NCBI GenBank assembly: GCA_964517625.1
Contig: CAZFBW010000001.1
Coordinates: 40,319 to 104,318, forward strand
DNA: 64,000 nt
Direction of reading: 5' to 3'
Origin: an uncultured Candidatus Saccharibacteria bacterium
GTDB taxonomy: Bacteria > Patescibacteriota > Minisyncoccia > Phycocordibacterales > UBA5272
This document shows, piece by piece, positions 2,436-63,198 of this stretch (its first letter is position 1; every line of letters starts with the position of its first letter). Under the pieces are notes generated by a model. It made no database searches. It saw only the letters and a program-made list of their open reading frames with translations, and was not told where the DNA came from. Position numbers and translations under genes: made by a program.

Positions 2436-3239
2436 ATGAAAACATCTCCTGCTCCTTTTTCTCCCTATATCGGCATTACTGATTTCATGACACACAAACA
2501 ATCAGCGACCATGTTGTCCACTTTTCAGGCGATGACAGAGGAAACCGTTCCTCATAAGCTCATGGTTGGTGTGATGATGAGTTACAAGACCTTGAATCAT
2601 CTTGAAACTAAGTGGAGCACTGTTTTTCCAAAAGCAGAAGAGGTGAAAGATATTTTCATTGCTCACCCACTTGCTTTCAATACGCTTCACTATGCCGACT
2701 ATACCAACACGGATGTCCCCACCTCGCTCGCTAAGGCGATTTTCTATGGAGGGAAGAATCTTAATGCACTTCAGTTGGATATGGTTTGGCCGTCTCCGCA
2801 AGATATAGAAGAGGCATTTAATTTGCTTGCTGATGTTGGGCGAGTACCTGTAATCTTGCAAGTTGGTACAAAGGCAATGGAGCAGGCCGGTGACAAGGTT
2901 GCTCATGTCATAAGCCGTCTTGTAGACTATGCCGACATCATTGATGGTGTGTTGTTCGATAAGAGTATGGGTCAAGGGAAACCAATGAACCCCGAAGTTC
3001 TCATGCCTTACGTTGAAGCGGTCTACAAATACATTCCTGGAATGCGTGTCTCAGTTGCTGGCGGACTTGGTCCAACCACAACTCAGATTGTTGAACCGCT
3101 CATCTCAAAGTTTCCAGACATAAGCATTGATGCGCAGGGGAGGCTTCGTCCAAGTGGTAGCGCACTTGACCCAATCGATTGGTCTATGGCTGAAGAATAC
3201 TTGCAAAAGGCCGTCGGACTGTTCAAAAAATACAATTAG
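2436..3239 (+). CDS. Hypothetical protein (alternating beta/alpha pattern, possibly TIM-barrel-like)
   Basis: 267-aa ORF with normal composition and no motif I can name with confidence. Confidence 0.45.
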   Translation: MKTSPAPFSPYIGITDFMTHKQSATMLSTFQAMTEETVPHKLMVGVMMSYKTLNHLETKWSTVFPKAEEVKDIFIAHPLAFNTLHYADYTNTDVPTSLAKAIFYGGKNLNALQLDMVWPSPQDIEEAFNLLADVGRVPVILQVGTKAMEQAGDKVAHVISRLVDYADIIDGVLFDKSMGQGKPMNPEVLMPYVEAVYKYIPGMRVSVAGGLGPTTTQIVEPLISKFPDISIDAQGRLRPSGSALDPIDWSMAEEYLQKAVGLFKKYN

Positions 3240-3387
3240 AAATTCGGTTCAATGAACCAAAACTTCCACAGAGTCACACCTGAGTGTGAACGTGGAAGTT
3301 TTTTATTTTATGGCGGGAATCGCTTCTCCCTTCGGTCGAAACGCACTATTTTTATAGTCACTTCGTTTCTTAAAAATAGGCGCCCTC

Positions 3388-3410
3388 GGTTCGATTCCCG
3401 CCGGAGGGCA
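3388..3410 (+). repeat. Inverted copy of the tRNA-Arg 3' end (ggttcgattcccgccggagggca) lying just past the tRNA terminator
   Basis: 22/23 identical to the 3' T-loop/acceptor of the minus-strand tRNA at 3435..3506, but on the opposite strand. It is part of the composite element at 3311..3412. Confidence 0.7.
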
Positions 3411-3434
3411 AGGAAAAACACGAAGTGTTTTTAG

Positions 3435-3506
3435 TGCCCCCGGCGGGAATCGAACCTACAATGACTCCTTAGGACGGAGCAGTTATATCCATTTAACTAC
3501 AGGGGC
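3435..3506 (-). tRNA. tRNA-Arg (anticodon CCU)
   Basis: Hand-folded cloverleaf. Acceptor GCCCCUG/CGGGGGC, D-arm GUUA/UAAC, anticodon stem GCUCC/GGAGU with loop GUCCUAA, T-loop TTCGATT. There is one A:C mismatch in the T-stem. Confidence 0.7.
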
Positions 3507-3580
3507 AAATATTGTTGTATATTCGATTCTACCACATCTTGTGCACTGTTAAATCATGAGAAATTAGATATACTTACCAT

Positions 3581-3916
3581 ATGTCAGGAACCGATTTAAC
3601 TAACCAAGAAAAATTAGAAGAAGTATACAGAATTACCGTGGAGAATAATCATATTCTTCACGGCATGCGTAATCGCGAACGAGTAGCAAACGCACTACGT
3701 ATCGTTTACTGGTTGGTTATCATCCTCTCTCTTGCTGGTGCTTACTACTATATTCGCCCTGTTATTGATTTATTTACAACAAATAAGGACAAGGTTGATC
3801 AAACGCTTATGCAGTTTCAAGAACTTCAGCAACAACTTCCACAAATGAAGGTGTTCCAGCAGTTTCTCAATAATTTGAAATCCTCAGAAACGGTTAATCA
3901 AGAACCGGTGCAATAA
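3581..3916 (+). CDS. Hypothetical small membrane protein
   Basis: 111-aa ORF with one TM helix. TATACT lies 6 nt upstream of the ATG, suggesting a leaderless mRNA. Confidence 0.5.
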   Translation: MSGTDLTNQEKLEEVYRITVENNHILHGMRNRERVANALRIVYWLVIILSLAGAYYYIRPVIDLFTTNKDKVDQTLMQFQELQQQLPQMKVFQQFLNNLKSSETVNQEPVQ

Positions 3917-3990
3917 GTTCGGTCTTTTCTCTGGTATTTTTTTGTGCTATTATGGGGAAACCAAATTTGGAAAAAGCAGAATGAAAATAT

Positions 3991-4063
3991 GCTGGGATAG
4001 CTCAGTTGGTAGAGCATTTGCCTGAAGAGCAAAGGGTCCCCAGTTCGAGCCTGGGTCCCAGCA
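3991..4063 (+). tRNA. tRNA-Phe (anticodon GAA)
   Basis: GCTGGGATAGCTCAGTTGGTAGAGC…CTGAAGA…GGTCCCCAGTTCGAGCCTGGGTCCCAGCA. Canonical cloverleaf; CCA is not encoded. Confidence 0.9.
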
Positions 4064-4201
4064 CAAAAATTAAAAAACTGCGTGAAAGCAGTTTTTTAAT
4101 TTTGCTGGAGCCGGGCTTGGGAAGAGGGTCGGAGAAACGGGAGTTTCTCCGTGGCGGAAGAATCGAAACCGCAGGGTTTCGAAACAAAACTCTGTTTTGT
4201 T

Positions 4202-4224
4202 GAGCCTGGGTCCCAGCACAAAAA
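4202..4224 (+). repeat. 23-nt direct repeat of the tRNA-Phe 3' end plus flank (gagcctgggtcccagcacaaaaa)
   Basis: Identical to 4047..4069. About 137 bp separate the two copies, and the second is followed by an 11-bp-stem hairpin at 4226..4254. Confidence 0.8.
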
Positions 4225-4277
4225 ACAAAGTCACTCGCACAGAGTGACTTTGTCGTATAGTATCCTATACTTACTAT

Positions 4278-5237
4278 ATGCAATATATAAAGCCAATAGT
4301 TACACTTGTTGCGGTTGCAACCTTAATGCCAGAACTGGTGACAGGGAGTACAAGTCTTTTTAGTTTTTTTATTCCTATTAATTTCCTTATTAATTTTTTA
4401 GGGTATGGTATCACTGTTCTTCTTATTCGTGAGTTTTATGTGAGGTATAATCTGAACTTCTTCGGTTTGTTTTTACTTGGTATTGTATATGTTGGTATTA
4501 ATGAAGGATTACTTGCAAAAACAATTATTTTAGAAAATGGTATTCCGTGGAATTTGTTTGATAATTATGGTTATATTGTAGGAATTAGTATTCCGTGGGC
4601 ACTCGCAATGTCCGTTTGGCATTCGGTATTTTCAGTTATGTTTCCAATTATTGCGACACACTTCTTGTTTACAGAAGCAAGTAAAGATTCATGGCTTAAC
4701 AAGAAAACAATAGCATTATTCACGGCCCTGATTGCTTTTGTTAGCCTTGCAGCATTTTTTGGTCCGTTTAGGGGGACGGGGACAGGGGGACAACTTTTCG
4801 TTATTCTTGGAGGCATGGCCATACTTACATTGCTATCAGTTTGGTTATGTAGAAAGAAAGAAGAAGGAGAACAACAGCATCCAATTACTACAAAGCCGGT
4901 ATGGCTAGGGGTGAGCACAGTCATTTCTTGGACAGTGCTTCTTTGTATTGTTATGGTTGGACTAAAAGTCCCATTGCTATTATTCTTTGTTGTCTTCGTT
5001 GGAATTATTGCCACCTATGTTCATATCTTTAGAAAAAAAATAGGTATTACCAATGACACACTACTCTTGTTTATTCTCGGTGGTTATTTTCAGACAGCAG
5101 TTACTGGATTATTGATGGCCTTCTTTTTTATGCCAGCAACCTTTGGTGAACGACTACCCGCTGAAATTATTATTCTTATAATTTCTACAATACTATTACG
5201 AAAAGTATTTAAGAGACACAGAGTAGTTACTGCATAA
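4278..5237 (+). CDS. Hypothetical polytopic membrane protein (about 8 TM helices)
   Basis: 319-aa hydrophobic ORF. Leaderless-type promoter TATACT-tactat-ATG. Confidence 0.55.
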   Translation: MQYIKPIVTLVAVATLMPELVTGSTSLFSFFIPINFLINFLGYGITVLLIREFYVRYNLNFFGLFLLGIVYVGINEGLLAKTIILENGIPWNLFDNYGYIVGISIPWALAMSVWHSVFSVMFPIIATHFLFTEASKDSWLNKKTIALFTALIAFVSLAAFFGPFRGTGTGGQLFVILGGMAILTLLSVWLCRKKEEGEQQHPITTKPVWLGVSTVISWTVLLCIVMVGLKVPLLLFFVVFVGIIATYVHIFRKKIGITNDTLLLFILGGYFQTAVTGLLMAFFFMPATFGERLPAEIIILIISTILLRKVFKRHRVVTA

Positions 5238-9161: not shown

Positions 9162-11042
9162 ATGTGTGGCATTATTGGCATTCTCACAAAGGAAAAGAAG
9201 AATATTACAGGAGACTTGATAGGGGCCTTATCTCGACTTGAGTACCGAGGGTACGATAGCGCGGGAATTGCTCTATCGGATGGGCACCAGTTGCATACAC
9301 TTAAGTGTGTTGGGGCGCCAAGTCAGTATTTGTATGAAAGGGATCTTACAAAAAACAAGGCACCGGTTTTATCGTATGTAGGCATTGGTCACAATCGCTG
9401 GGCGACGCACGGTAAGCCGACAGTTGTAAACGCGCATCCACACTTTGATACGAAGAAGCGCATTGCGGTTGTACACAACGGAACGATTCTCAACTATGAA
9501 TCACTTCGCAATGAATTGAAACAGCACGGCGCACTATTTGTTTCAGACACCGACACTGAAGTGATACCCCACTTGATTGCATACTACACGGAGAAAGGAA
9601 TGTCGATGCGTGATGCATTTATAAGTGCAGTGAATCGTCTTGAAGGGGCGTTTGGTATTGTTGCATTAGATGTGCATGATGGAAACACACTGTATGTTGC
9701 AAAAGAGGGTAGTCCAATTGTGATTGGTCTCTCGCACGGCGCACTCTATGTTGCATCAAGCGTGCATGGGTTCTTACCGTTTACGGATGAGTTCGTTACA
9801 CTTCACGACGGAGAAATTGCAGTCCTCTCTTCGGAGAAAGAATTACAAACTGAAATCATCAGATACAAAGATAATAAAAAAATTAATAATCGTACTTCTC
9901 AAACCGCTCTATCCGTACAGCTTCACGATTTATCCAAAGGAGACTTTGAGACGTTCATGTTGAAGGAAATTTTTGAACAACCAGCAACGACACAGGCAAC
10001 GCTCCTTGGTCGTATCAATGACAAACAAGGAACGGCAATGCTCGGTGGACTTGTTGATTCGGAACCATTGCTACAAAAGATAACCAATATTTTATTTACT
10101 GGGTGCGGTACGGCATACCACGCCACCCTTGTAGCACAACATATTATTGAGCATATTACCGATATTACCGTACGAAGCGAAATTGCCTCGGAAGGGAAAT
10201 ATAAGACACTGCACACCAAAGAAGACCAAACCGCCGTGTTTGCAATCAGTCAATCGGGAGAAACAGCGGACACGCTCGAGTATGTGAAAGAATTGAAAAA
10301 TAAAGGGTATGAAATATTTGGCATTGTAAATGTTGTGGGGAGTGCGCTTGCAGAATTGGCTGGAAAAGGAATATACACGAAAGCTGGTTCTGAAATTGGC
10401 GTTGCATCAACGAAAGCATTCACTTCACAACTAGCGTCATTGTATTTGCTCGCACTCCATCTTGCGCGCATGCGTACCTTTAGCGCAAAAGAAGGGATGA
10501 AGTTTGCTTCGGCGCTTGAGCGCATTCCCAACCTCATGAAAGAAACACTCTTACTTAATGGAGAGGTGGAAGGGCTCGCTTCCAAGTATCAAGCGATTAC
10601 AAAAATTCAATTTTTAGGAAGAGGTGTTCATGTGCCGATTGCGCAGGAAGCATCGCTTAAATTTAAAGAAATTACATATCTCGAGACGGGAGCATATCCG
10701 CTTGGTGAGTTAAAGCATGGACCGATTGCTATCGTCGATGAAGAAACACTTTCGGTGGTTATTTTACCAAACGATGAACTCTTTGAACTTGGCGTTAACT
10801 CAATTGAGCAAATTAAATCAAAAGGCGGAAAAGTTCTTCTCATTACCGACACATCAGTTAAGAATCATCCAATTTGTAAAAAAGTCGATGATGTAATTTT
10901 TATTCCGCACATTGAGGACGACATCTTCTACCCGTTTTTGGAAATTATACCGCTTCAGTTATTTGCCTATCATTTTGCAAAATTACTTGGAAGAAATATT
11001 GATAAGCCAAGAAACTTAGCAAAATCGGTGACGGTTCAATAG
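9162..11042 (+). CDS. glmS: Glutamine--fructose-6-phosphate aminotransferase
   Basis: N-terminal MCGIIG nucleophile and two SIS domains. The 5' leader is too short for a glmS ribozyme. Confidence 0.9.
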   Translation: MCGIIGILTKEKKNITGDLIGALSRLEYRGYDSAGIALSDGHQLHTLKCVGAPSQYLYERDLTKNKAPVLSYVGIGHNRWATHGKPTVVNAHPHFDTKKRIAVVHNGTILNYESLRNELKQHGALFVSDTDTEVIPHLIAYYTEKGMSMRDAFISAVNRLEGAFGIVALDVHDGNTLYVAKEGSPIVIGLSHGALYVASSVHGFLPFTDEFVTLHDGEIAVLSSEKELQTEIIRYKDNKKINNRTSQTALSVQLHDLSKGDFETFMLKEIFEQPATTQATLLGRINDKQGTAMLGGLVDSEPLLQKITNILFTGCGTAYHATLVAQHIIEHITDITVRSEIASEGKYKTLHTKEDQTAVFAISQSGETADTLEYVKELKNKGYEIFGIVNVVGSALAELAGKGIYTKAGSEIGVASTKAFTSQLASLYLLALHLARMRTFSAKEGMKFASALERIPNLMKETLLLNGEVEGLASKYQAITKIQFLGRGVHVPIAQEASLKFKEITYLETGAYPLGELKHGPIAIVDEETLSVVILPNDELFELGVNSIEQIKSKGGKVLLITDTSVKNHPICKKVDDVIFIPHIEDDIFYPFLEIIPLQLFAYHFAKLLGRNIDKPRNLAKSVTVQ

Positions 11043-11082
11043 AGGTGCGAAATCGAAGATTTTGTGGTATGATTATCGGACT

Positions 11083-13599
11083 ATGTCGTTTATTTCCAAG
11101 GCAATTGAGTTGGTTTTCCCGCCTGAGTCGGTACGCCTCATTAAGAAACTTGAGCCCCTCGTTGATGAGGTTTTTGGATATGAAGAAGCACTAAAGGCTC
11201 TTTCAAACGACGAATTAAAAGCGCGCAGTTTGGCACTTAAAGAGCAAGTGCAAAAAGAACTTACTGGTCTTTCTGGGGAGGAACGCAAAAAAACAGAAAA
11301 GAAGGTTTTGGATGCAGTGCTTCCAGAGGCGTTTGCACTTGTGCGTGAGTCAGCTCGTCGTACGCTTAAAATGATGCACTATCGCGTGCAGGTGGTTGGA
11401 GGCATGCTTCTTAATATGGGTCATATTGCAGAAATGCGTACCGGTGAAGGAAAGACGCTTGTTGCCACGCTTCCGGCATACTTAAATGCGCTCACTGGCC
11501 GCGGTGTACACATTGTTACGGTAAACGACTATCTCTCTCGTCGCGACGCGGTGTGGATGGGGCAGGTGTATGACATGCTTGGACTCTCGGTTGCCGTCAT
11601 TAACCATCAATCATCCTACCTCTACGACAGTACCCACCTTTCACAAGAAGAGGAAAAAACTGAAGACGAGAAGCGTGATGATGTTGGTTCATATAAAGTC
11701 GTCTACGATTTTCTAAAACCGTGCACGCGCCAAGAAGCATACAAGGCAGACATTACCTATGGAACAAACAACGAGTTTGGTTTTGATTATTTGCGCGACA
11801 ATATTGGCTACGCGGTTGATTCTTTGTCTCAGCGTGAGCACCATTACGCAATTGTGGACGAAATCGACTCAATTTTGATTGACGAGGCACGTACCCCGCT
11901 TATTATTTCCGCACCAGCGCAGGAATCAAGCGATATGTATAAGAATTTTGCACGTATCGCATCCCAACTTGTGGAAGGGGATCACTATACGGTAGATGAA
12001 AAACAGCGCGCAATTGCACTCACCGAAGCAGGTATCTCCTATGCAGAAGAACTGCTCGGCGTTTCAAATATTTATTCGGTATCTGGCATGCAATACGTGC
12101 ACCATTTGGAAACCGCGGTCAAAGCAAAAGCACTTTTTATCAAGGAACGCGAATATGTTGTGCGCGATAACGAGGTAATCATTGTTGATGAATTTACGGG
12201 ACGCATGCAACCAGGACGTCGTTGGTCAGATGGGCTTCATCAAGCAGTTGAAGCAAAAGAAGGGGTAAAAATCGAACAAGAATCTCGCACTCTTGCTTCT
12301 ATTACGTTCCAAAATTATTTCCGCTTCTATGAAAAACTTTCGGGTATGACCGGTACCGCGGAAACATCTAAAGAAGAATTTTATAAAGTATATGGACTTG
12401 TTGTGTCTCCTGTACCAACACACCACCCAATTAAGCGTAAGGATCACAATGATCTCATTTTCCAAACCGAAAAAGGGAAATGGAAAGCACTTGCTCGAAA
12501 AATTAAAGAACTTCACGATAAAGGACAACCGGTACTTGTCGGTACTATTTCTATTGAAAAGAACGAAGTGCTTTCAAAGTATCTTGAACGTGAAGGAATT
12601 CCTCACGCTGTACTTAATGCGAAGAACCACGAACAGGAAGGTGAAATTATTGCAAATGCGGGAGCGCGCGGGGCAGTGACGATTGCAACTAACATGGCAG
12701 GTCGTGGAGTGGACATTAAACTTGGTGGTCCGCAAGCAACGGAAGCTGAGCGTGAAGAAGTACTTCGTCAAGGTGGTTTGTATGTGATTGGTACTGAGCG
12801 TCATGAAGCACGCCGTATCGACAATCAGTTGCGGGGTCGTTCAGGACGACAAGGGGACGTGGGTGAGACGCAGTTCTTTGTGTCGCTTGAAGATGAGCTT
12901 ATGCGTGTGTTCGGGTCAACCAACATCAAGAGTATGATGGGGCGTTTTGGTATTCCAGAAGATGAACCAATTGATTCTAAGCTCGTCTCTCGAGCACTTG
13001 AGGGTGCGCAAGAAAAAATTGAAGGATTTCACTTTGATACACGTAAACACACGCTTCAGTATGACGATGTTTTGAACCACCAGCGAAGAAGTATTTATGA
13101 TAAGCGTCGTAAAATTTTGTTCCACGACAAGGAATATTTTGAGGAATTGATGAATTCGGTTGTTGCATTCAAACCCGAAATAGCAGAGCTTATTGCGACG
13201 AAAAAGAAGGAGTACGGTGAAGAGGTTTTTATGAGTGTTGTTTCTATGATGGCGCTTCAAGTAATCGACATGCTTTGGATGGACCACCTCGACCAAATGG
13301 AGCACATGCGAAATAGTGTGAATCTTCGCTCATACGGACAACGTGATCCACTTGTTGAATACAAAAAAGAAGGGCTTCGTATGTTCAGAGGATTGGAACA
13401 AACAACGCTTCACGACCTCGTTCTCTTCATTGAAAACATTGATGGTGTTATGGCCGCACAGCATAATCGCGAACGTGTCGCGGCAGTTGCAAGCGAAAGA
13501 GATAGAGTAAAAGCTGGACGCAATGACCCATGCCCATGCGGAAGTGGAAAGAAGGTAAAGAAGTGCGATTGTGAGGAGTTTGCTTACTTGAGGAAGTAG
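11083..13599 (+). CDS. secA: Preprotein translocase ATPase SecA
   Basis: DEAD-like motor motifs and the C-terminal zinc finger CPCGSGKKVKKC. Confidence 0.9.
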   Translation: MSFISKAIELVFPPESVRLIKKLEPLVDEVFGYEEALKALSNDELKARSLALKEQVQKELTGLSGEERKKTEKKVLDAVLPEAFALVRESARRTLKMMHYRVQVVGGMLLNMGHIAEMRTGEGKTLVATLPAYLNALTGRGVHIVTVNDYLSRRDAVWMGQVYDMLGLSVAVINHQSSYLYDSTHLSQEEEKTEDEKRDDVGSYKVVYDFLKPCTRQEAYKADITYGTNNEFGFDYLRDNIGYAVDSLSQREHHYAIVDEIDSILIDEARTPLIISAPAQESSDMYKNFARIASQLVEGDHYTVDEKQRAIALTEAGISYAEELLGVSNIYSVSGMQYVHHLETAVKAKALFIKEREYVVRDNEVIIVDEFTGRMQPGRRWSDGLHQAVEAKEGVKIEQESRTLASITFQNYFRFYEKLSGMTGTAETSKEEFYKVYGLVVSPVPTHHPIKRKDHNDLIFQTEKGKWKALARKIKELHDKGQPVLVGTISIEKNEVLSKYLEREGIPHAVLNAKNHEQEGEIIANAGARGAVTIATNMAGRGVDIKLGGPQATEAEREEVLRQGGLYVIGTERHEARRIDNQLRGRSGRQGDVGETQFFVSLEDELMRVFGSTNIKSMMGRFGIPEDEPIDSKLVSRALEGAQEKIEGFHFDTRKHTLQYDDVLNHQRRSIYDKRRKILFHDKEYFEELMNSVVAFKPEIAELIATKKKEYGEEVFMSVVSMMALQVIDMLWMDHLDQMEHMRNSVNLRSYGQRDPLVEYKKEGLRMFRGLEQTTLHDLVLFIENIDGVMAAQHNRERVAAVASERDRVKAGRNDPCPCGSGKKVKKCDCEEFAYLRK

Positions 13600-17084: not shown

Positions 17085-17264
17085 CAAAAAATAAGGAGCA
17101 AAGCGACTATATTTTTGTGATGTCGGAGTACTTAGACTTTTATGAGTGAAGCGAAATAAAAGGCTTTAGTACTATCGACGCACAAATAAGACATCAAACC
17201 AAAGGATTTCTAAGGAGCGAACCGACTCGTAAGGGTCACGGGTAAAAGTGCTATAATTGAGAAA

Positions 17265-24260: not shown

Positions 24261-24328
24261 AGGAAAATAGTACCAGAATAGGGGGAAAGCGCAATGAGGG
24301 GGAGAGAAACATGGTCGTCATTATGTTG

Positions 24329-24415
24329 CGGAGAGAGCGAGATTCGAACTCGCGGACCCAATAAAGGGTCGACAGTTTAGTAAACTGTTGATTTAAACCA
24401 CTCATCCATCTCTCC
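24329..24415 (-). tRNA. Type-II (long variable arm) tRNA, Ser-like, with apparent anticodon ACU (unusual A34)
   Basis: GGAGAGAUGGAUGAGUGGUUUAAAUCA-ACAGU-UUACUAA-ACUGU-variable arm-GCGAG-TTCGAAT-CTCGC-UCUCUCC-G. G73 discriminator. A TATAAT promoter lies about 30 nt upstream. The anticodon is read from a hand fold. Confidence 0.6.
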
Positions 24416-24441: not shown

Positions 24442-24465
24442 GCGGCGCAGAATTATAGTCGCTTT
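24442..24465 (-). promoter_or_regulatory. tRNA promoter -10 region (minus strand aaagcgacTATAATtctgcgccgc); 24-nt motif repeated at 26223..26246
   Basis: Exact TATAAT positioned correctly for the tRNA at 24415. The same 24-mer recurs 1.78 kb away. Confidence 0.55.
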
Positions 24466-24595
24466 GCTCCTTAATTCTGCATCCTGCAAAAATATGGTTG
24501 CCCCACTCCTTCTTGTGTTGCTAGACGCAACACGTGCGAAGTGATTTGAAGCTTTTTTGTATGGAACGCTTCGCTTGCAAAAAACTTAAAATCAG

Positions 24596-26222: not shown

Positions 26223-26246
26223 GCGGCGCAGAATTATAGTCGCTTT
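26223..26246 (-). repeat. Second copy of the 24-nt tRNA-promoter motif (gcggcgcagaattatagtcgcttt), with no tRNA downstream
   Basis: Identical to 24442..24465 and directly adjacent to the 3'-fragment copy of tRNA-Ser(CGA). Confidence 0.8.
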
Positions 26247-26255
26247 ACGCCTTGT

Positions 26256-26278
26256 TTTTGCGGAAATGGTGGGATTTG
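26256..26278 (-). repeat. Orphan copy of the tRNA-Ser(CGA) 3' end (23 nt), about 180 bp from the intact tRNA
   Basis: ttttgcggaaatggtgggatttg is identical to 26454..26476. Confidence 0.8.
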
Positions 26279-26458
26279 GTCACCAAACATATCTTTTTAT
26301 TTCATGACTACATTCATAAAAAGATTGTTTCGCGACCCCGACTTCACCCTCGCTGTTTTTGATTACAAAATCAGACTTCGTCTCGGGTTCAGTTCAAATC
26401 TACTCATTTCTCGCAAAATACAATTGCACAAAGCTCACGCTTCGTGCTCATTATTTTG

Positions 26459-26545
26459 CGGAAATGGTGGGATTTGAACCCACGAACAGATTACTCCGTT
26501 GCCTGATTTCGAGTCAGGTGCCTTCAACCACTCAGCCACATTTCC
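26459..26545 (-). tRNA. tRNA-Ser (anticodon CGA)
   Basis: Type-II tRNA. Acceptor GGAAAUG/CAUUUCC, G73, anticodon stem CCUGA/UCAGG with loop CUCGAAA, T-loop TTCAAAT. Confidence 0.8.
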
Positions 26546-51312: not shown

Positions 51313-51709
51313 CAGATTACCTTTCACGGTTGCTGTGTTAGACCAAAATTTCTTGACCGTTTTCAAGGATAAATGGAATCATTGGAAAATCGGCGCATGT
51401 GCGAGGTGGTTTTTCTTCTGGTGTTTCTTCGGGTGGAGGAGACGGTAGATTTTCTCTGGTGTCCATGGTCAAATCCCTTTTAGTTGAAAGAGCAACACAA
51501 TACACCTTACCACGTGAAAAGTTACTCGTAAAGATGGTGTTTTTATGATAGTATTGTTATTTATAAGCAATGCCGGAGTGGCTCAAGTAGCTTGGCTACG
51601 CAGACGTCTGTAGCTAGCAAGCGAAAGACGCTGAATGGTTTCCATTCCGAGCATGTGTAATGTGTTTATTATATTTTTTGTAGAAAGATATAAACAATAA
51701 GAGAATTAT

Positions 51710-51790
51710 GCCGGAGTGGCGGAATGGTAGACGCGCGCGACTCAAAATCGCGTATCGCAAGGTGTGGAGGTTCAAGTCCTCTCTCCGGCA
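51710..51790 (+). tRNA. tRNA-Leu (anticodon CAA)
   Basis: Type-II tRNA. Acceptor GCCGGAG/CUCCGGC, anticodon stem CGCGA/UCGCG with loop CUCAAAA, T-arm GGAGG-TTCAAGT-CCTCT. Terminator at 51801..51835. Confidence 0.85.
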
Positions 51791-51851
51791 CTATAAATAT
51801 AAAATGACCACATACACGAAGTGTGGTTATTTTATATTTACTGTACCTGGT

Positions 51852-51955
51852 GGAGAGAGGACTTGAACCGAAGGCGACATATTTTCTTAGACTGTAATCA
51901 GTCTGTTGAAAATACAAGTCTCGACTGAAAGGAGAAACAAGTCCTCTCTCCGGCA
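51852..51955 (+). repeat. Composite tRNA-associated element (Leu copy): inverted 18-nt copy of the tRNA-Leu 3' end, a conserved about 55-bp core with a hairpin, then a direct 18-nt copy of the tRNA 3' end
   Basis: 51852..51869 is the reverse complement of GGTTCAAGTCCTCTCTCC. The core gaaccgaaggcgacatattttcttagactgtaatcagtctgttgaaaatacaagtctcga is shared with 63107..63166. 51938..51955 (caagtcctctctccggca) is identical to the tRNA 3' end. Confidence 0.8.
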
Positions 51956-51981
51956 TAGCAATTGCGCTATACTTACTCCAT

Positions 51982-52584
51982 ATGACCTTCATTTCAAAAT
52001 ATCTTCCCCACCTTTTACTTGCTGTCTATGCAATCGAGTTTGGGATATTAAGTATCAATCCATACGCGCGCGATGTGTGGTTTGTAGAGAATCTCACGGT
52101 TCTTGTGATTGTTGTTTTACTTGTGATTTTGTATGCAAAAGGAATTCGTTTTTCAAATACAGCGTATGTGCTCATGTTTATTTTGCCATTTCTACACACC
52201 ATAGGGGGACACTATACGTTTGAGAAAGTTCCATTTGATTGGTTCAATGATATGTTTGGATTTGAAAGAAATATGTATGATCGAGTTGCACACGCAACCG
52301 TGGGGCTCTATGCTTTCCCACTTGCTGAATACTTGCTTTCTAAGAAAAAAGTAGCGAGCGCTTTTTGGGCAACATTTACCTCACTTTGTTTTATTGTAAC
52401 CGTTGCGGCGGTGTATGAATTATTTGAATGGCAATATGCGGTGAACGCTGACCCAACTGCTGGTATTGCCGTGCTTGGTGCACAAGGGGACATTTGGGAT
52501 GCACAGAAAGACATGCTCATGGATACACTGGGTGCTGTAACCGCACTTGTCATATTTAATGTGCGGAGACTTTTTTCGAAGTAG
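51982..52584 (+). CDS. Membrane protein (YjdF/DUF2238-like, 5-6 TM helices)
   Basis: 200 aa with GGHYTFEKVPFDW… pattern. Confidence 0.5.
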   Translation: MTFISKYLPHLLLAVYAIEFGILSINPYARDVWFVENLTVLVIVVLLVILYAKGIRFSNTAYVLMFILPFLHTIGGHYTFEKVPFDWFNDMFGFERNMYDRVAHATVGLYAFPLAEYLLSKKKVASAFWATFTSLCFIVTVAAVYELFEWQYAVNADPTAGIAVLGAQGDIWDAQKDMLMDTLGAVTALVIFNVRRLFSK

Positions 52585-52708
52585 ATTTTATATTTAGTAA
52601 AAGAAAAACGGCTTAGCGCTTTGAAAGCCGCTAAGCCGTTGTTGTTTCGGGTCGCGTTGCACGACTCGAATGTTGTTTGGGTTTGCGTTGCGCAAACCCG
52701 TAGAGCCC

Positions 52709-54376
52709 TTAGAACGCCTCGAGCTCCTTCGTGCGGAGGACCTCTTCGATCCTGTCGGCGAACACTTGGTTGATGACCGTGTTGCCGTCCGTTTCGTCGA
52801 GGTAGGCGACATACGCGCCACCGTTCATGCCTTGCGCACGCAGGGTCACGACCGCCTGACGGTCGGGAACCAGCGCGATTTCCTGGACGCCGTGCACGTC
52901 GTTGACGTACACCATCTTCTTGGCCAGGACCTTGGCCTTGCCCTCGAACGTGGGGCGTTCGAAGGTGACCTTCTCGCCGTCGACGAGGTACTTGTGACCG
53001 CTGGCCGAACGGCGCACCACCTTGTGGGCGGGGCTACCACCCTTGTTCCGGATCACCACGTGGATGCCCGGATTGAACAGCTTGGCCACGTGGTCGTTGT
53101 CGACCTCCAGCACCTCGAGACCTTCCCCGCGCTCGTTGTAGACGACCACCGGGTTTTCTTCGATGCTGGCCATCAGCTTGGCCTGGCGTTCGCCCGCCTC
53201 ACGCGCCTTGCGTTCGGCTTCATCAGCCTTGCGCTTGGCGCTCATCTTGCTCTGGGCCGCGTTCAGCTTGGCCCTGATCACGTCCTCCTCCGCGGTGAAG
53301 CGGGGGTTGGCGCTGAGCAACTTGGCGACCTTCTGCTTGAAGATCACCGCCTGCACGGCGTTCATGCCACCGTGCAGGATGAGGATGTCGTCGTTGCCGA
53401 CGACCTCCACTTTCTCCGTCTCGCTCTTGAGCGAGACGGTGGTGAACAGCATCTGGTCCTTCCCGGACCTGCCCTTCGTGCCGATGACGATGAAACCGTC
53501 GTCGGCCGTCTGGATCAGGTTGTAGAAGAACTCGAGCGACTTGTCCTGCTGGTGGATGTCCCAGAGGCAGCGGTTGCCGCCGTCGGGCATGTGCAGGTAG
53601 GCGTTCGTGGGCACGTAGCCCCAGTCCTTCCCGCCGTACTTGGCGGAGCGGAACAGGGTAATGACCACCTTGCCAGCCTTGACCTCGAAGGAGATCTGGC
53701 CGGTCTTGCCCTTGTCGGTCGTCGCCTCGTTCTCGAGGACGAATTCCGTGACCACGCTCGCCGACTTGGCGGGCGCGGTGTTGGAGTTCGTCTTGGCGCT
53801 GACGCGCTCGTCCTTCTCGATGTCGATCAGGGTGTTCTGCACCACGACTTCACCGCCGAAGTACTCGCGCAGGTAGCCGATGATGGCGTCCTGGGCTTTC
53901 TTCACCTGCGGGTTGGGGGCGGTCGACTGGAAGCCGGGCTTCGAGAGCCAGGCAGCCTTCACGAACGTCTCCTTCCGGAGACCCATCAGGGGGTGGTCCT
54001 CGAAGGTGTACCCTTCGTGGGTGTACCCTTCGTGGGCGTGCAGGTAGACCACCGTGAGCTCGCGCTTCGTGCCGTCCTTGTTGGGACGGTACTCCAGGTC
54101 GAGGTGCACGGAGGGCTTGTCGCCGCCCGGGAACGTGTACGGTCCGGGCAGGCCAGCGATGAAGGACTCCTTGTCGGAGCTCTTCCCCGCGTTCTGCTCG
54201 ATGTACCAGGCCGGACCGGCCGCACTGCGAGCCTTGTCCTTCTGGGCCTTGACGGCCCTCTTGTTGTCCGCGACGGCCTTGGCGGCGGTTTGCCGCTCCG
54301 CGATCGTCTTGGGCGAACCCTTGCCGTTGCCACCCTTGTTGCTGTTGCCTTTGTTGCCGGATTTGGCCTGGGCCAT
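52709..54376 (-). CDS. Hypothetical 556-aa protein on a GC-rich island (about 64% GC), with a Gly/Lys-rich N-terminus and a HEGYTHEGYT repeat
   Basis: Normal amino-acid composition on the minus strand only; the plus-strand 575-aa ORF is the usual L/V/G/R-rich antisense artefact. A Shine-Dalgarno site (AAGGAGAA) lies 7 nt before the ATG at 54376. A TTGACA -35 is at 54518..54523 on the minus strand. Confidence 0.65.
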   Translation of the reverse strand: MAQAKSGNKGNSNKGGNGKGSPKTIAERQTAAKAVADNKRAVKAQKDKARSAAGPAWYIEQNAGKSSDKESFIAGLPGPYTFPGGDKPSVHLDLEYRPNKDGTKRELTVVYLHAHEGYTHEGYTFEDHPLMGLRKETFVKAAWLSKPGFQSTAPNPQVKKAQDAIIGYLREYFGGEVVVQNTLIDIEKDERVSAKTNSNTAPAKSASVVTEFVLENEATTDKGKTGQISFEVKAGKVVITLFRSAKYGGKDWGYVPTNAYLHMPDGGNRCLWDIHQQDKSLEFFYNLIQTADDGFIVIGTKGRSGKDQMLFTTVSLKSETEKVEVVGNDDILILHGGMNAVQAVIFKQKVAKLLSANPRFTAEEDVIRAKLNAAQSKMSAKRKADEAERKAREAGERQAKLMASIEENPVVVYNERGEGLEVLEVDNDHVAKLFNPGIHVVIRNKGGSPAHKVVRRSASGHKYLVDGEKVTFERPTFEGKAKVLAKKMVYVNDVHGVQEIALVPDRQAVVTLRAQGMNGGAYVAYLDETDGNTVINQVFADRIEEVLRTKELEAF

Positions 54377-54566
54377 GTGATTCTCCTTGTGTCGTAAGTA
54401 GCGGGGGCCGAAATTGGCCTCCCGCATGGTGCTATGGGTTGCTTGCGGTGTTCAAAGTACTGCTACTACAAGGGCCTGGCAAGAACCGTAGTTCTCCCAA
54501 GCCTCGTACTTCTACCCTATATTATTGCATATTTTAACACTTTTGTCAATACCACACACACACTCC

Positions 54567-57388: not shown

Positions 57389-57838
57389 GGACGCCCTAAG
57401 TTCGCCCTCAACGCCCCGGCTCGCCAGAGCCCGCGTCCCGCGTCAACGGCAGCCGCGCACAGTTGCGCGACCGCCACGCCAGGCAAGGTGCGAGCACGAC
57501 GCTCGCCCTTCGGGATTGCCGGCCAATCGCCGGGCTTCATCGCGCTATTAAAAAATAGCGCAAAAGAAAGGAGTCGAAAAGAACGACTGACAACCTACCC
57601 TCTAACCTTCTAGGTACTGAGGAAGGCTGGTGGGGCGAAAGCCCTTTACGCGAAACGCTTGCAGCGTACTGCACCCGCCTGAGGGTGAACAGGTACTTAG
57701 AAATGACGACGACATGTCTCAAACACCGCCCCCGGTTCCGCAAGGACCCGGGGGCTAAATATTTCTATACCAAGTATTTATATTTTCTAAAGTCTGAAAT
57801 CTAATGTCTAACTTTTATTTTCATGCTAGAGTTTAGGT

Positions 57839-62975: not shown

Positions 62976-63059
62976 GCGTCGGTGGTGGAGTGGTCAATCA
63001 CAACAGACTGTAAATCTGTCGCCCTTAGGGCTTCGAAGGTTCAAATCCTTCCCGGCGCA
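62976..63059 (+). tRNA. tRNA-Tyr (anticodon GUA), type II, with an encoded CCA
   Basis: Acceptor GCGUCGG/CCGGCGC, A73 then CCA, anticodon stem ACAGA/UCUGU with loop CUGUAAA, long variable arm, T-arm GAAGG-TTCAAAT-CCTTC. Terminator at 63063..63090. Confidence 0.85.
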
Positions 63060-63092
63060 CCAAGAAAAATACCCATCAGGGTATTTTTTAAT

Positions 63093-63198
63093 GCCGGGAA
63101 GGATTTGAACCGAAGGCGACATATTTTCTTAACCTGTAATCAGGTTGTAGAAAATACAAGTCTCGAGCGTAGCAACGCGAGAGGCAAATCTTTCCCCC
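63093..63198 (+). repeat. Composite tRNA-associated element (Tyr copy): inverted 19-nt copy of the tRNA-Tyr 3' end, the conserved core with a covarying hairpin, then a degenerate direct copy of the tRNA 3' end
   Basis: 63093..63111 is the reverse complement of GGTTCAAATCCTTCCCGGC. The core is 52/57 identical to the Leu copy. The hairpin taacctg-taat-caggttg covaries with Leu's tagactg-taat-cagtctg. 63185..63198 (caaatctttccccc) resembles CAAATCCTTCCCGG. Confidence 0.8.

Follow-up and report, generated by a model that had tools for sequence, protein, structure and literature searches.

Non-coding cassettes behind tRNA genes of Patescibacteria combine conserved cores with inverted and direct copies of the local tRNA 3' end

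The subject of this study is a short structured element behind the leucine transfer RNA gene, tRNA-Leu(CAA), in a 64,000-nt stretch of DNA (hereafter "the window") from an uncultured Candidatus Saccharibacteria bacterium (GenBank assembly GCA_964517625.1, contig CAZFBW010000001.1, positions 40,319 to 104,318). The element is one of a real, reproducible and apparently undescribed family whose members are best explained as non-coding cassettes, ~100-190 bp in length, that have been grafted onto Patescibacteria tRNA genes at their 3' ends. In each cassette an inverted copy of the 3' end of the adjacent tRNA (X'), a core and a direct copy of the same 3' end (X) follow one another behind the tRNA and its terminator. 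Five, and probably six, of the eight tRNA genes in the window carry this framing. The genes of the window are bacterial housekeeping genes (gatB, miaA, IF-2, rbfA, secA, murB/C, dnaG, rpoD, clpB and others), and the closest homologues are labelled Patescibacteria, Nomurabacteria or Parcubacteria. A preliminary description of the element, made by inspection, held that no described family has this layout; that statement stands, since neither a match in Rfam nor a description in full-text literature searches was found.

All eight tRNA genes were predicted with ARAGORN and confirmed with Rfam. At tRNA-Leu(CAA), the gene is followed by a terminator-like hairpin with a stem of ACCACA and TGTGGT flanked by AT-rich arms (TAAATATAAAAT and ATTTTATATTTA), which is missing from a simple terminator scan because its T run is interrupted (Table 1). 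The preliminary description placed the start of the element at 51846, and we have moved this boundary to the terminator; the 18-nt exact inverted and direct copies of the tRNA 3' end that it reported are confirmed. The inverted copy, GGAGAGAGGACTTGAACC, is the exact reverse complement of positions 60-77 of the tRNA gene (the complement of G52 to C69) and spans the T-loop, the 3' strand of the T-stem and the start of the acceptor 3' strand. The core that separates it from the direct copy, CAAGTCCTCTCTCCGGCA, is ~68 nt long, and the first 5 nt of the conserved box GAACCGAAGGCG are the complement of the T-loop sequence GGTTC. Both copies have local-alignment scores of 18; the same flank, shuffled 20 times, gave at most 8.0. 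The two direct repeats are separated by 146 bp, which hold no open reading frame (ORF) of note, and the sense strand of the cassette has a folding energy of -48.2 kcal/mol (z = -6.8). The Leu, Arg and Phe elements are 100% identical among four independent assemblies from different sequencing runs, and an assembly artefact is therefore rejected.

Table 1. Positions of cassettes, their parts and associated features in the window, with serine recombinase genes of related loci in the last two lines
Feature	Position	Strand	Support or remark
tRNA-Leu(CAA)	51710-51791	+	ARAGORN; Rfam tRNA, 58.6 bits
Proximal copy X (tRNA-Leu 3' part from C56)	51773-51790	+	
Terminator-like hairpin between tRNA-Leu and cassette	~51794-51840	+	read from sequence
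Leu inverted copy X', GGAGAGAGGACTTGAACC	51852-51869	+	exact, 18 nt; 5' strand of closing helix P1
Leu conserved box GAACCGAAGGCG, junction J1/2	51865-51876	+	unpaired in consensus fold
Leu P2: AT-rich stem ATATTTTC / GAAAATA and apical hairpin	51879-51914	+	
Leu apical hairpin TAGACTG-TAAT-CAGTCTG, capping P2	51888-51905	+	
Leu P3 hairpin GTCTC-GA-CT-GAA-AG-GA-GAAAC	51918-51938	+	RNAalifold pairs 69-95
Leu distal copy X, CAAGTCCTCTCTCCGGCA	51938-51955	+	exact, 18 nt, T-loop C56 to discriminator A73; 3' strand of P1
Mirror-image element upstream of tRNA-Leu	51572-51653	+	
Type A cassette behind tRNA-Tyr (62976-63062)	63093-63196	+	covariance model, 76.9 bits
Tyr X'	63093-63111	+	exact, 19 nt
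Tyr box	63107-63118	+	
Tyr apex	63130-63147	+	
Tyr P3	63160-63185	+	
Tyr X	63185-63196	+	degenerate
Type A cassette behind tRNA-Arg(CCT) (3434-3506, -)	3312-3404	-	covariance model, 104.7 bits
Arg X'	3388-3404	-	exact, 17 nt
Arg box	3381-3392	-	
Arg P2 and apex	3344-3380	-	
Arg P3	3322-3342	-	
Arg X	3312-3322	-	11 nt, partial
Type B cassette behind tRNA-Phe (3991-4064)	4104-4219	+	
Phe X'	4104-4117	+	degenerate
Phe two-hairpin core	4118-4201	+	
Phe X	4202-4219	+	exact, 18 nt
Type C-like cassette behind tRNA-Ser(CGA) (26458-26545, -)	26260-26414	-	
Ser(CGA) X'	26385-26414	-	degenerate
Ser(CGA) core, GGGGTCGCGAAAC...GTTTGGTGACC	26278-26339	-	
Ser(CGA) X	26260-26278	-	exact, 19 nt
Serine recombinase, L079	16210-17911		
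Serine recombinase, L081, L082, L083, L084	~10001-11710		

The core recurs within the window. The box GAACCGARGGCG adjoins tRNA-Arg, tRNA-Leu and tRNA-Tyr, and at up to one mismatch it has four matches in the window compared to an expectation of 0.4. A covariance model of this core type, which we call type A, finds exactly three copies in the window, behind the same three tRNAs. The claim that Tyr and Arg share the architecture of the Leu element holds in full for the inverted copies, which are exact, and in part for the direct copies, which are reduced to 12 nt with one mismatch at Tyr and to 11 nt at Arg. Similarly, the first of the two boxes said to be conserved at the three sites is present at all of them, while the second, TCGACYGAARGGAGAA, occurs at Leu and Arg only and reads TCGAGCGTAGCAACGCGAGAGG at Tyr. 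Three further cassettes, at tRNA-Phe, tRNA-Ser(CGA) and probably tRNA-Glu, go beyond what the preliminary description covered, as do the generic framing of at least four cores, the three-way junction, the T-loop boundaries of the copies and the strong purifying selection described below. At tRNA-Phe the original terminator of the tRNA now lies 3' of the distal copy, at 4220-4253; at tRNA-Glu the framing is probable, with a gapped direct copy. The one-mismatch match to the type A box comes from a GC-rich structured stretch between two genes (57600-57760, with the hairpin CCGCCCCCGGTTCCGCAAGGACCCGGGGGC), which is not a cassette.

To place these elements in a wider sample, one degenerate type A pattern was used in two large DNA scans of genome, metagenome and viral collections. 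Most matches are chance occurrences inside coding sequence. The true members lie behind tRNA-Lys (L002, L017 and L063), tRNA-Asn (L020) and tRNA-Arg (L029 and L062), always on the tRNA strand, in Nomurabacteria and metagenome contigs; variants at which there is no tRNA were found in L005, in L014, L035, L038 and L073, and in L015 and L065, and L012 is a truncated copy at a contig end. The covariance model scores the known type A copies at 62-105 bits and identified new copies behind tRNA-His in L081 and in L082. The preliminary description had proposed such searches, in relatives and by covariance model, among its checks, and the core does recur beside other tRNAs and in other genomes. The type A and type C patterns were not found among 2.9 million viral contigs, and a phage origin is rejected.

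The tails of 45 tRNAs from 13 Patescibacteria loci (the window, scan hits and contigs reached via neighbouring proteins) were surveyed with ARAGORN and local alignment, with cut-off scores of 13.5 for a direct copy or 13 for an inverted copy and 20 shuffles per tRNA. Copies of the tRNA's own 3' end were found at 18 of the 45, and the top score among shuffles was 13.0. The order of tRNA, terminator, inverted copy, core and direct copy is invariant across these loci, with the inverted copy at +23 to +90 and the direct copy at +100 to +300. A direct repeat from the T-loop to the 3' end was seen at 14 tRNAs of related loci. Some contigs, L084 among them, carry no cassette; therefore cassette load varies among genomes.

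At least four core types share the framing. Type A is defined by GAACCGARGGCG ... GTYTCGA ... GGAGAR. Type B consists of two hairpins, GGGTCGGRGAAAC...GTTTCYCCG and TCGAAACC...GGTTTCGA, and is found at tRNA-Phe in the window and in L089 and at tRNA-Leu in L074. Type C has the form GGGGTCGCGAAAC-hairpin-GTTTYGTGACC, preceded by a 9-bp hairpin (H0) with the loop CTGC. Its inverted copy is split, the complement of the acceptor strand abutting the terminator stem and the complement of the T-part following H0, so that acceptor complement, terminator stem and tRNA end form one long palindrome. Type D lies behind tRNA-Cys in L079 and L082. The modules can be combined, as in L002 and L014 (B plus A), and in L083 and L079 they occur in tandem, the repeating unit being X-terminator-X'-core. 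In L014 (1745-1990; also in L035, L038 and L073) type B and type A-like modules form a composite 3' of the rplL stop codon. Its closing copies match the final ~25 nt of rplL, one being direct and the other inverted and degenerate, and the latter pairs through three G.U pairs on the sense strand; therefore the framing is not strictly tRNA-specific.

The boundaries of the copies point to the T-loop. Seven of the direct copies begin exactly at C56 and the rest within a few nucleotides of it, and they end 0-4 nt past the discriminator (in L062 the identity runs ~10 nt further). Viewed as a possible target-site duplication of fixed length, such as a transposon leaves, the copies have starts at C56 (+/-1-2 nt) and ends 0-4 nt beyond the discriminator or later. 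The inverted copy always reaches the complement of GGTTC; therefore both junctions with the core lie within the T-loop. Two copies show this in another way. The local T-loop in L029 and L063 is TTCAATT (CAATTCC), yet the distal copy opens with the family-typical CGATTCC and continues with bases specific to the local tRNA. The two copies are hybrids, as expected for copying or crossover within or just after the T-loop. The type A subtypes track similarity of the T-arm (Leu and Tyr in one; Arg, Lys and Asn in another), which suggests homology-dependent spread. The inverted copy in L029 has an apparent match to tRNA-Lys of another genome, which differs by only two substitutions from the local expectation; it was not used as evidence of relocation. 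Comparison of the copies shows the arms to be local sequence and the core to be common to different tRNAs and genomes, as the preliminary description proposed when it stated that the terminal repeats are copied from the local tRNA rather than carried as fixed transposon ends. A classical miniature inverted-repeat transposable element (MITE), or any transposon with constant terminal inverted repeats, is rejected because the termini differ between copies, those at Leu, Tyr and Arg each matching the local tRNA.

The fold supported by nine aligned type A sequences is a three-way junction on the tRNA-sense strand. X' and distal X pair as the closing helix P1, and the GAACCGAAGGCG box is unpaired and near-invariant across the nine copies. 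P2 is an AT-rich stem with a covarying apex: the Leu and Tyr cores are identical except for this apex (AGACTG/CAGTCT in the former and AACCTG/CAGGTT in the latter), where they differ by two compensated base pairs. In the Arg/Lys subfamily the apex is a hairpin, AGGAGC-NNN-GCGACT, with tandem G.A, which reads AGGAAT/ATGACT in L002. P3 has the consensus GTYTC-GA-CY-RAA-RG-GA-GARRC, also with tandem G.A, and covaries at 71:93 (C-G, U-A, U.G) and 77:87 (RNAalifold); the Leu copy has internal tandem G.A/A.G pairs and a Shine-Dalgarno-like (ribosome-binding-site-like) GGAG. An early pairing of CGARGGCG with GTYTCG was rejected, as it gives A.C mismatches whereas P3 covaries at 71:93. For type C, an RNAalifold consensus of five sequences has 37 pairs, 12 of them with compensatory changes. 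Seven of the nine pairs in H0 covary and all 45 of its 45 pairings are Watson-Crick, and the helix GGTCGCGAAAC/GTTTTGTGACC keeps two G.U pairs, for which A-U and G-C are the only replacements. Counted over all helices, there are 37 G.U cells and 10 A.C cells; therefore the folding strand is the tRNA-sense strand.

Several other structured sequences lie close to tRNA genes. The type A apex of the Arg/Lys subfamily also exists as a stand-alone hairpin, AAGGAGC-AAA-GCGACTATAA, which has A/T-rich flanks and tandem G.A/A.G pairs. It occurs directly after tRNA-Glu, between two tRNA-Ser genes and after the Ser(CGA) cassette (17086-17116, +; 24447-24480, -; 26228-26246, -), and it may serve as a terminator of a special kind or bind a protein. 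A conserved module, TTTTTTGCAAGC...CAAAAAAGCTTCAAATCACTTCGCA...AAGAAGGAG, lies 3' of tRNA-Ser(GCT) in the window (24496-24594, -) and appears twice within the expanded apex of the type A element in L015 (700-900). In the mirror-image element upstream of tRNA-Leu, the tRNA 5' end is copied directly (GCCGGAGTGGC, 51572-51582); after a structured spacer the D-loop region follows as a degenerate inverted copy, CCATTCCG, and the whole lies 5' of the tRNA-Leu promoter region. It is kept with changes in L074 (9508-9590), where the spacer holds a CGAAGGCGAC box resembling that of type A.

Orthologous tRNAs differ in the cassettes that they carry. The tRNA-Leu(CAA) gene beside a DUF2238 gene has type A in the window. 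Its counterpart in L074, next to which the neighbouring protein has 91% identity, is followed by type B, then by an old 3'-end copy in the window's version (TCCTCTCTCCGGCAC), then by a type A remnant and a second copy. For tRNA-Lys(CTT) the site is bare in L076 and L083, occupied by type C in L079 and by type A in L082. In L088 tRNA-Phe is bare, with the tRNA, a ACAAAAAACAAA-type terminator and the next gene in direct succession, and this terminator is the one found 3' of the distal copy in the window; L089 has an orthologous type B cassette at tRNA-Phe and an extra type-A-like piece. At tRNA-Arg(CCT), type A is kept in the window and in L088, while in L089 an inserted type C cassette separates the tRNA from the old type A cassette, which has lost both junction box and P3. 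The preliminary description had proposed a comparison of strains for presence and absence: the four assemblies are identical, and no empty site was caught within the population, but relatives show empty, replaced and stacked sites. A plain RNA-processing signal, one of the three explanations first considered, would leave the several unrelated cores and this turnover unexplained.

Once in place, the cores change little. Between the window and L088 the Arg cassettes are 93% identical and the tRNAs 100%, compared to 71% for the adjacent 111-codon ORF, 59-72% for intergenic spacers and 65% for the terminator between tRNA-Arg and X'. The few differences in the Arg cassette include a compensated change of T:A to C:G in P2 and two others, in the junction box and in the P3 loop. 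Between the window and L089 the type B core is 89% identical and the ORF 67%. In older copies (Tyr, Arg, and Val and Arg of L081) the part of distal X that is derived from the T-arm and paired in P1 survives and the acceptor part decays; therefore selection keeps the fold and the core, not mimicry of the tRNA. These alignments show the cores to be under strong purifying selection once in place.

One terminator palindrome occurs twice in L082 (13430-13473, -; 14211-14253, +), with identical stems and a reverse-complemented loop (CAAAA in one, TTTTG in the other). The two palindromes sit in a duplicated unit composed of the tRNA-Lys 3' end, the terminator and a type A cassette, and one copy of the unit is attached to the type C core behind tRNA-Leu(TAA). 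The reversed loop reads as a signature of strand switching within palindromes.

We regard as settled how the cassettes are built, that they form a family, which strand folds, and that they turn over and are conserved. Our favoured reading, to which we assign a probability of about 0.5, is that the cassettes are functional structured-RNA units grafted onto tRNA 3' ends by T-loop-anchored recombination. A cassette would be copied or inserted by recombination, either site-specific or by a replication template switch, with junctions in the T-loop, the one sequence common to all tRNAs. Such recombination would explain the arms rebuilt from the local tRNA, the start at C56 and the hybrid distal copies. 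The cassette would then be transcribed from the same strand, with the tRNA or just after it, and would form a stable structured trailer RNA or an RNA-protein particle. L062, where only 22 nt separate tRNA and cassette and there is no terminator, is consistent with co-transcription. P1 would merely close the fold and hide the orphan tRNA fragment, the selected part being the core, whose junction box and tandem-G.A hairpins are probably a protein-binding platform. The cassette would also provide or reinforce termination and insulation behind a highly transcribed tRNA gene.

Several considerations weigh against this reading. Transcription, RNA ends and stability are all inferred by us, and the biochemical role suggested for the core is a guess. 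Most copies have a terminator between the tRNA and the cassette, so read-through may be rare, and no convincing promoter was found for the cassette itself. Neither the window, whose 38 largest ORFs were compared to Pfam, nor the surroundings of cassettes in relatives yielded a recombinase, transposase or reverse transcriptase. Part of the high core identity between species may be due to recent lateral replacement and not to purifying selection. An excess of G.U pairs and compensatory changes are also expected of a folded single strand of DNA, and H0 has no G.U pair at all. Lastly, the sample of ~25 cassettes is small, and the scans relied on a single type A pattern.

A bolder form of the proposal is that these are a novel class of self-propagating RNA-coding cassettes that home to tRNA genes via the T-loop, using X' as a built-in guide or closing strand that refits one core to any tRNA, and that may also make an as yet undescribed structured RNA or RNA-protein particle needed behind the tRNA genes of the ultra-small bacteria of the candidate phyla radiation (CPR). 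We offer this as a speculation with perhaps one chance in a few of being right.

The rival that survives best, though we think it improbable on balance, moves the fold from RNA to DNA: the cassette is a mobile unit and the fold a recombination substrate. The pairing of X' with X would rebuild, in a folded single strand of DNA, a duplex copy of the tRNA gene that runs from the T-loop to the 3' end, and a recombinase acting in trans would exchange the folded strand with a tRNA gene. Candidates for such an enzyme would be a tyrosine recombinase like Xer or an integron integrase, or an HUH enzyme (a single-strand DNA nuclease) as in IS200/IS605, and the product, X-cargo-X'-core-X, would have the topology of integron cassettes (attC sites) and of CTXphi at dif. 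The observed order, X ... X'-core-X, does match that of these systems. Strand-specific folding, the perfect H0 stems free of wobble pairs, the tandem units of X-terminator-X'-core, the gain, loss and replacement of cassettes, and the presence of the framing at the end of a protein gene (L014) and, in mirror image, at a tRNA 5' end are all consistent with it as well. However, neither the window nor the neighbourhood of cassettes yielded a candidate enzyme (Pfam and gene tables of related loci), and integron R and L box motifs are absent. The stems differ between copies, and a sequence-specific recombinase would therefore have only the T-loop to read. Conservation of G.U pairs, with A-U and G-C as the only replacements, is more typical of RNA; 89-93% conservation in place is unexpected of a sequence selected only when moving; and viral contigs gave no match to the patterns of types A and C.

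The three explanations first considered for the element also included miniature integrative elements or attachment-site remnants that target tRNA 3' ends. This was the closest of them, in that the repeat from T-loop to discriminator and the empty, replaced and stacked states are what such elements would leave, but the ordinary integrase scar does not hold. As an explanation it states that the copies are attL and attR scars of integrase-borne islands or prophages targeting the T-loop, and that the core is the remnant of an island arm after deletion. We consider it to have little chance of being correct. A direct repeat from T-loop to tRNA 3' end is that of classical tRNA-targeting integrative elements, and at tRNA-Leu it is exact over 18 nt from C56 to A73; no integrase or recombinase gene lies between the repeats, and none was found by Pfam among the 38 largest ORFs of the 64-kb window despite its five or six cassettes. 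Nor would random deletion yield identical boundaries, four recurrent cores, compensatory changes and 89-93% conservation.

A large serine recombinase does occur at related loci (Table 1). It belongs to a Patescibacteria-wide family with >1300 homologues at E <= 1e-30, and it lies at tRNA-Leu(TAG/GAG), convergent with the tRNA, in 5/5 loci examined, where its stop codon reaches ~22 nt into the tRNA 3' end. Integration at tRNA-Leu in all five, and the position of type C cassettes of L079 at the far end of a 4.2-kb serine-recombinase island, would suit the scar explanation. However, the L081 island has the same far-end sequence as that of L079 and no cassette there, and a search of 10 kb in L081-L084 gave no distal tRNA copy. 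For these reasons the enzyme is rejected as an integrase of the cassettes, and we treat the islands as a separate phenomenon. The L083 island also contains a LOOT RNA (RF03000, 65.3 bits) at 9184-9298 (-), ~700 bp upstream of the recombinase gene.

If the element were a regulatory switch, like an attenuator or a riboswitch, X' would pair with either the tRNA 3' half or distal X, and so control maturation of the tRNA or expression of the downstream gene. X' is complementary to both copies of X, the acceptor-strand complement of type C abuts the terminator stem such that one long alternative hairpin could form, and the conserved junction has the look of an aptamer. We nonetheless give the switch, which the preliminary description had raised as an attenuator, a slim chance. 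The cassette lies 3' of the tRNA terminator; the downstream genes are mutually unrelated, the one behind Arg being convergent, with terminators on both sides; the -10-like box of the next gene at Tyr and Leu is 3' of the cassette; and pairing with proximal X would destroy an essential tRNA. Membership in the T-box class was examined in the same connection: Rfam gives no T-box match, and the element follows a tRNA terminator rather than lying in a 5' leader.

Equally slim is the chance that the cassettes are a neutral by-product of replication, in which forks halt at tRNA genes and at the palindromes of terminators, and the copies and pasted-in hairpin modules arise by template switching, with no function. 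The inverted loop in the otherwise identical L082 terminator palindrome, the seamless continuation of the terminator palindrome by the first part of the type C inverted copy (X'a), the junctions in T-loop microhomology and the hybrid copies all point that way. Against it, the cores are far better conserved than neighbouring genes and spacers, they show compensatory substitutions, and the unpaired 12-nt box is near-invariant across distant lineages. Template switching may be the route by which cassettes spread; it does not explain their maintenance.

Least probable of all is a small RNA gene on the opposite strand, convergent with the tRNA and with a 3' end mimicking that of the tRNA (the Leu strand ends ...CTCTCCACCA): the antisense strand folds too, but less stably at Leu than the sense strand (-41.5 kcal/mol, z = -5.2), and the palindromic terminator could act both ways, yet the wobble counts favour sense and argue against an antisense gene, conserved G.U pairs become C.A mismatches on that strand, the ACCA that follows the antisense helix at Leu is absent at Tyr and Arg, and neither ARAGORN nor Rfam sees a tRNA-like gene there. 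A tRNA- or tmRNA-like reading of the Leu minus strand, which ends in ACCA and has a sequence, ATAGTCGC, resembling the tmRNA resume context, was likewise rejected, for want of a conserved ACCA and of a reading frame with a stop, and because the wobble counts lean to the sense strand.

Other identities were tried and rejected. At gathering scores, Rfam 15 finds only tRNAs in the window, and permissive searches (E <= 10 over 51500-52050; E <= 5 over 3200-4300) return only noise at 14-28 bits, mostly models of microRNAs and small nucleolar RNAs. In five related loci Rfam finds only tRNAs and the LOOT RNA. There is no call of a tRNA or tRNA-like gene over 51846-51955 on either strand (ARAGORN, Rfam), and the T-loop residues are paired in P1. 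A group I intron within a Patescibacteria tRNA gene would be at least 200 nt long and located in the anticodon loop (PMC13011429); the Leu element is 110 nt, lies outside the mature tRNA and has no Intron_gpI match. A retroviral-type tRNA primer-binding site is rejected, as X' at Tyr and Arg is without a complement of CCA and extends past A58.

The cassettes share features with several known systems. Like tRNA-targeting integrative elements, for example T-loop attachment-site islands, cis-mobilizable elements (CIMEs) and Prochlorococcus tycheposon arrays (bioRxiv 10.1101/2020.12.28.424599), they have a direct repeat of the 3' part of the tRNA from T-loop to gene end, leave the working tRNA intact, accumulate in tandem behind it and vary in presence among relatives. 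Such elements are kilobases long, whereas the cassettes measure 100-190 bp and have no integrase in or near them; they also have an inverted copy of the target and a conserved, folded, non-coding core under purifying selection, and one framing surrounds several unrelated cores.

Integron cassettes (attC), CTXphi and integrative mobile elements exploiting Xer (IMEX) at dif integrate via a folded single strand. The cassettes resemble attC and CTXphi at dif in the order of target copy, cargo, inverted copy, spacer and target copy, in folding of one strand, in stems whose sequence varies while pairing is kept, and in tandem arrays. They differ in having no R and L core sites (GTTRRRY), IntI or Xer/dif site, in a stem that copies a different tRNA at each site rather than one fixed site, and in a cargo that is a terminator and not a gene. 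No RYYYAAC ... GTTRRRY boxes were found at the arm ends, and no IntI integrase among the window ORFs (Pfam). The enzyme and the single-stranded intermediate are, for the cassettes, candidates only.

REP/BIME sequences and REPINs (PMC3116915), BOX, RUP, Correia and other MITEs, and IS200/IS605-derived palindromes are likewise short, hairpin-rich and non-coding, and the cassettes are similar to them as modular mosaics (A, B, C, D, H0 and the tandem-G.A hairpin combine) found behind genes near terminators. The termini of those repeats are constant and read by a transposase, whereas cassette termini are copied from the adjacent gene, and the cassettes associate with tRNA 3' ends on the tRNA strand. 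Strand-specific hairpins are present, and no TnpA or RAYT partner was found in the window or in ~200 kb of related loci (precomputed Pfam tables). Among RNAs that borrow features of tRNAs (small RNAs from 3' external transcribed spacers, tRNA-like structures, and minihelix substrates of RNase P, RNase Z and the CCA-adding enzyme), the likeness lies in the location in the tRNA trailer on the tRNA strand and in a closing helix that carries the 3' strand of the tRNA acceptor and T-stem and ends at the discriminator. Unlike them, the cassettes have a paired T-loop and no elbow, with a helix of 11-18 bp leading into a three-way junction, and the decay of the acceptor part in older cassettes indicates that tRNA mimicry is not selected. 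None of the systems compared has arms copied from the local gene around a conserved, selected, non-coding core.

Two further features of the window may be recorded. A GC-rich island at 52600-54430 (55.6%, compared to ~42% elsewhere) holds a minus-strand ORF of 572 codons with no Pfam match, directly following the DUF2238 gene; a 552-codon ORF, also without Pfam hits, occupies the same place in L074. A tRNA-Ser with the unusual anticodon ACT (A34) is predicted at 24328-24415 (-), beside the normal tRNA-Ser(GCT), with an Rfam tRNA score of 56.3 bits.

Patescibacteria have tiny, streamlined genomes, yet ~100-190 bp are spent behind five or six of the eight tRNA genes of this 64-kb window. At the least, the cassettes provide several new RNA motifs for covariance-model libraries, and they are a caution for programs that identify genome islands, as a duplicated tRNA 3' end is not always the mark of an integrase-borne island. 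Should the inverted copy prove to be a guide, they would be an example of natural target-matched insertion with no dedicated enzyme nearby. They suggest a route by which non-coding modules can spread via the T-loop common to every tRNA, their ends rebuilt from the local gene. The implication of core conservation above that of neighbouring proteins is that an unrecognised functional RNA, or RNA-protein particle, is tied to tRNA genes in these bacteria.

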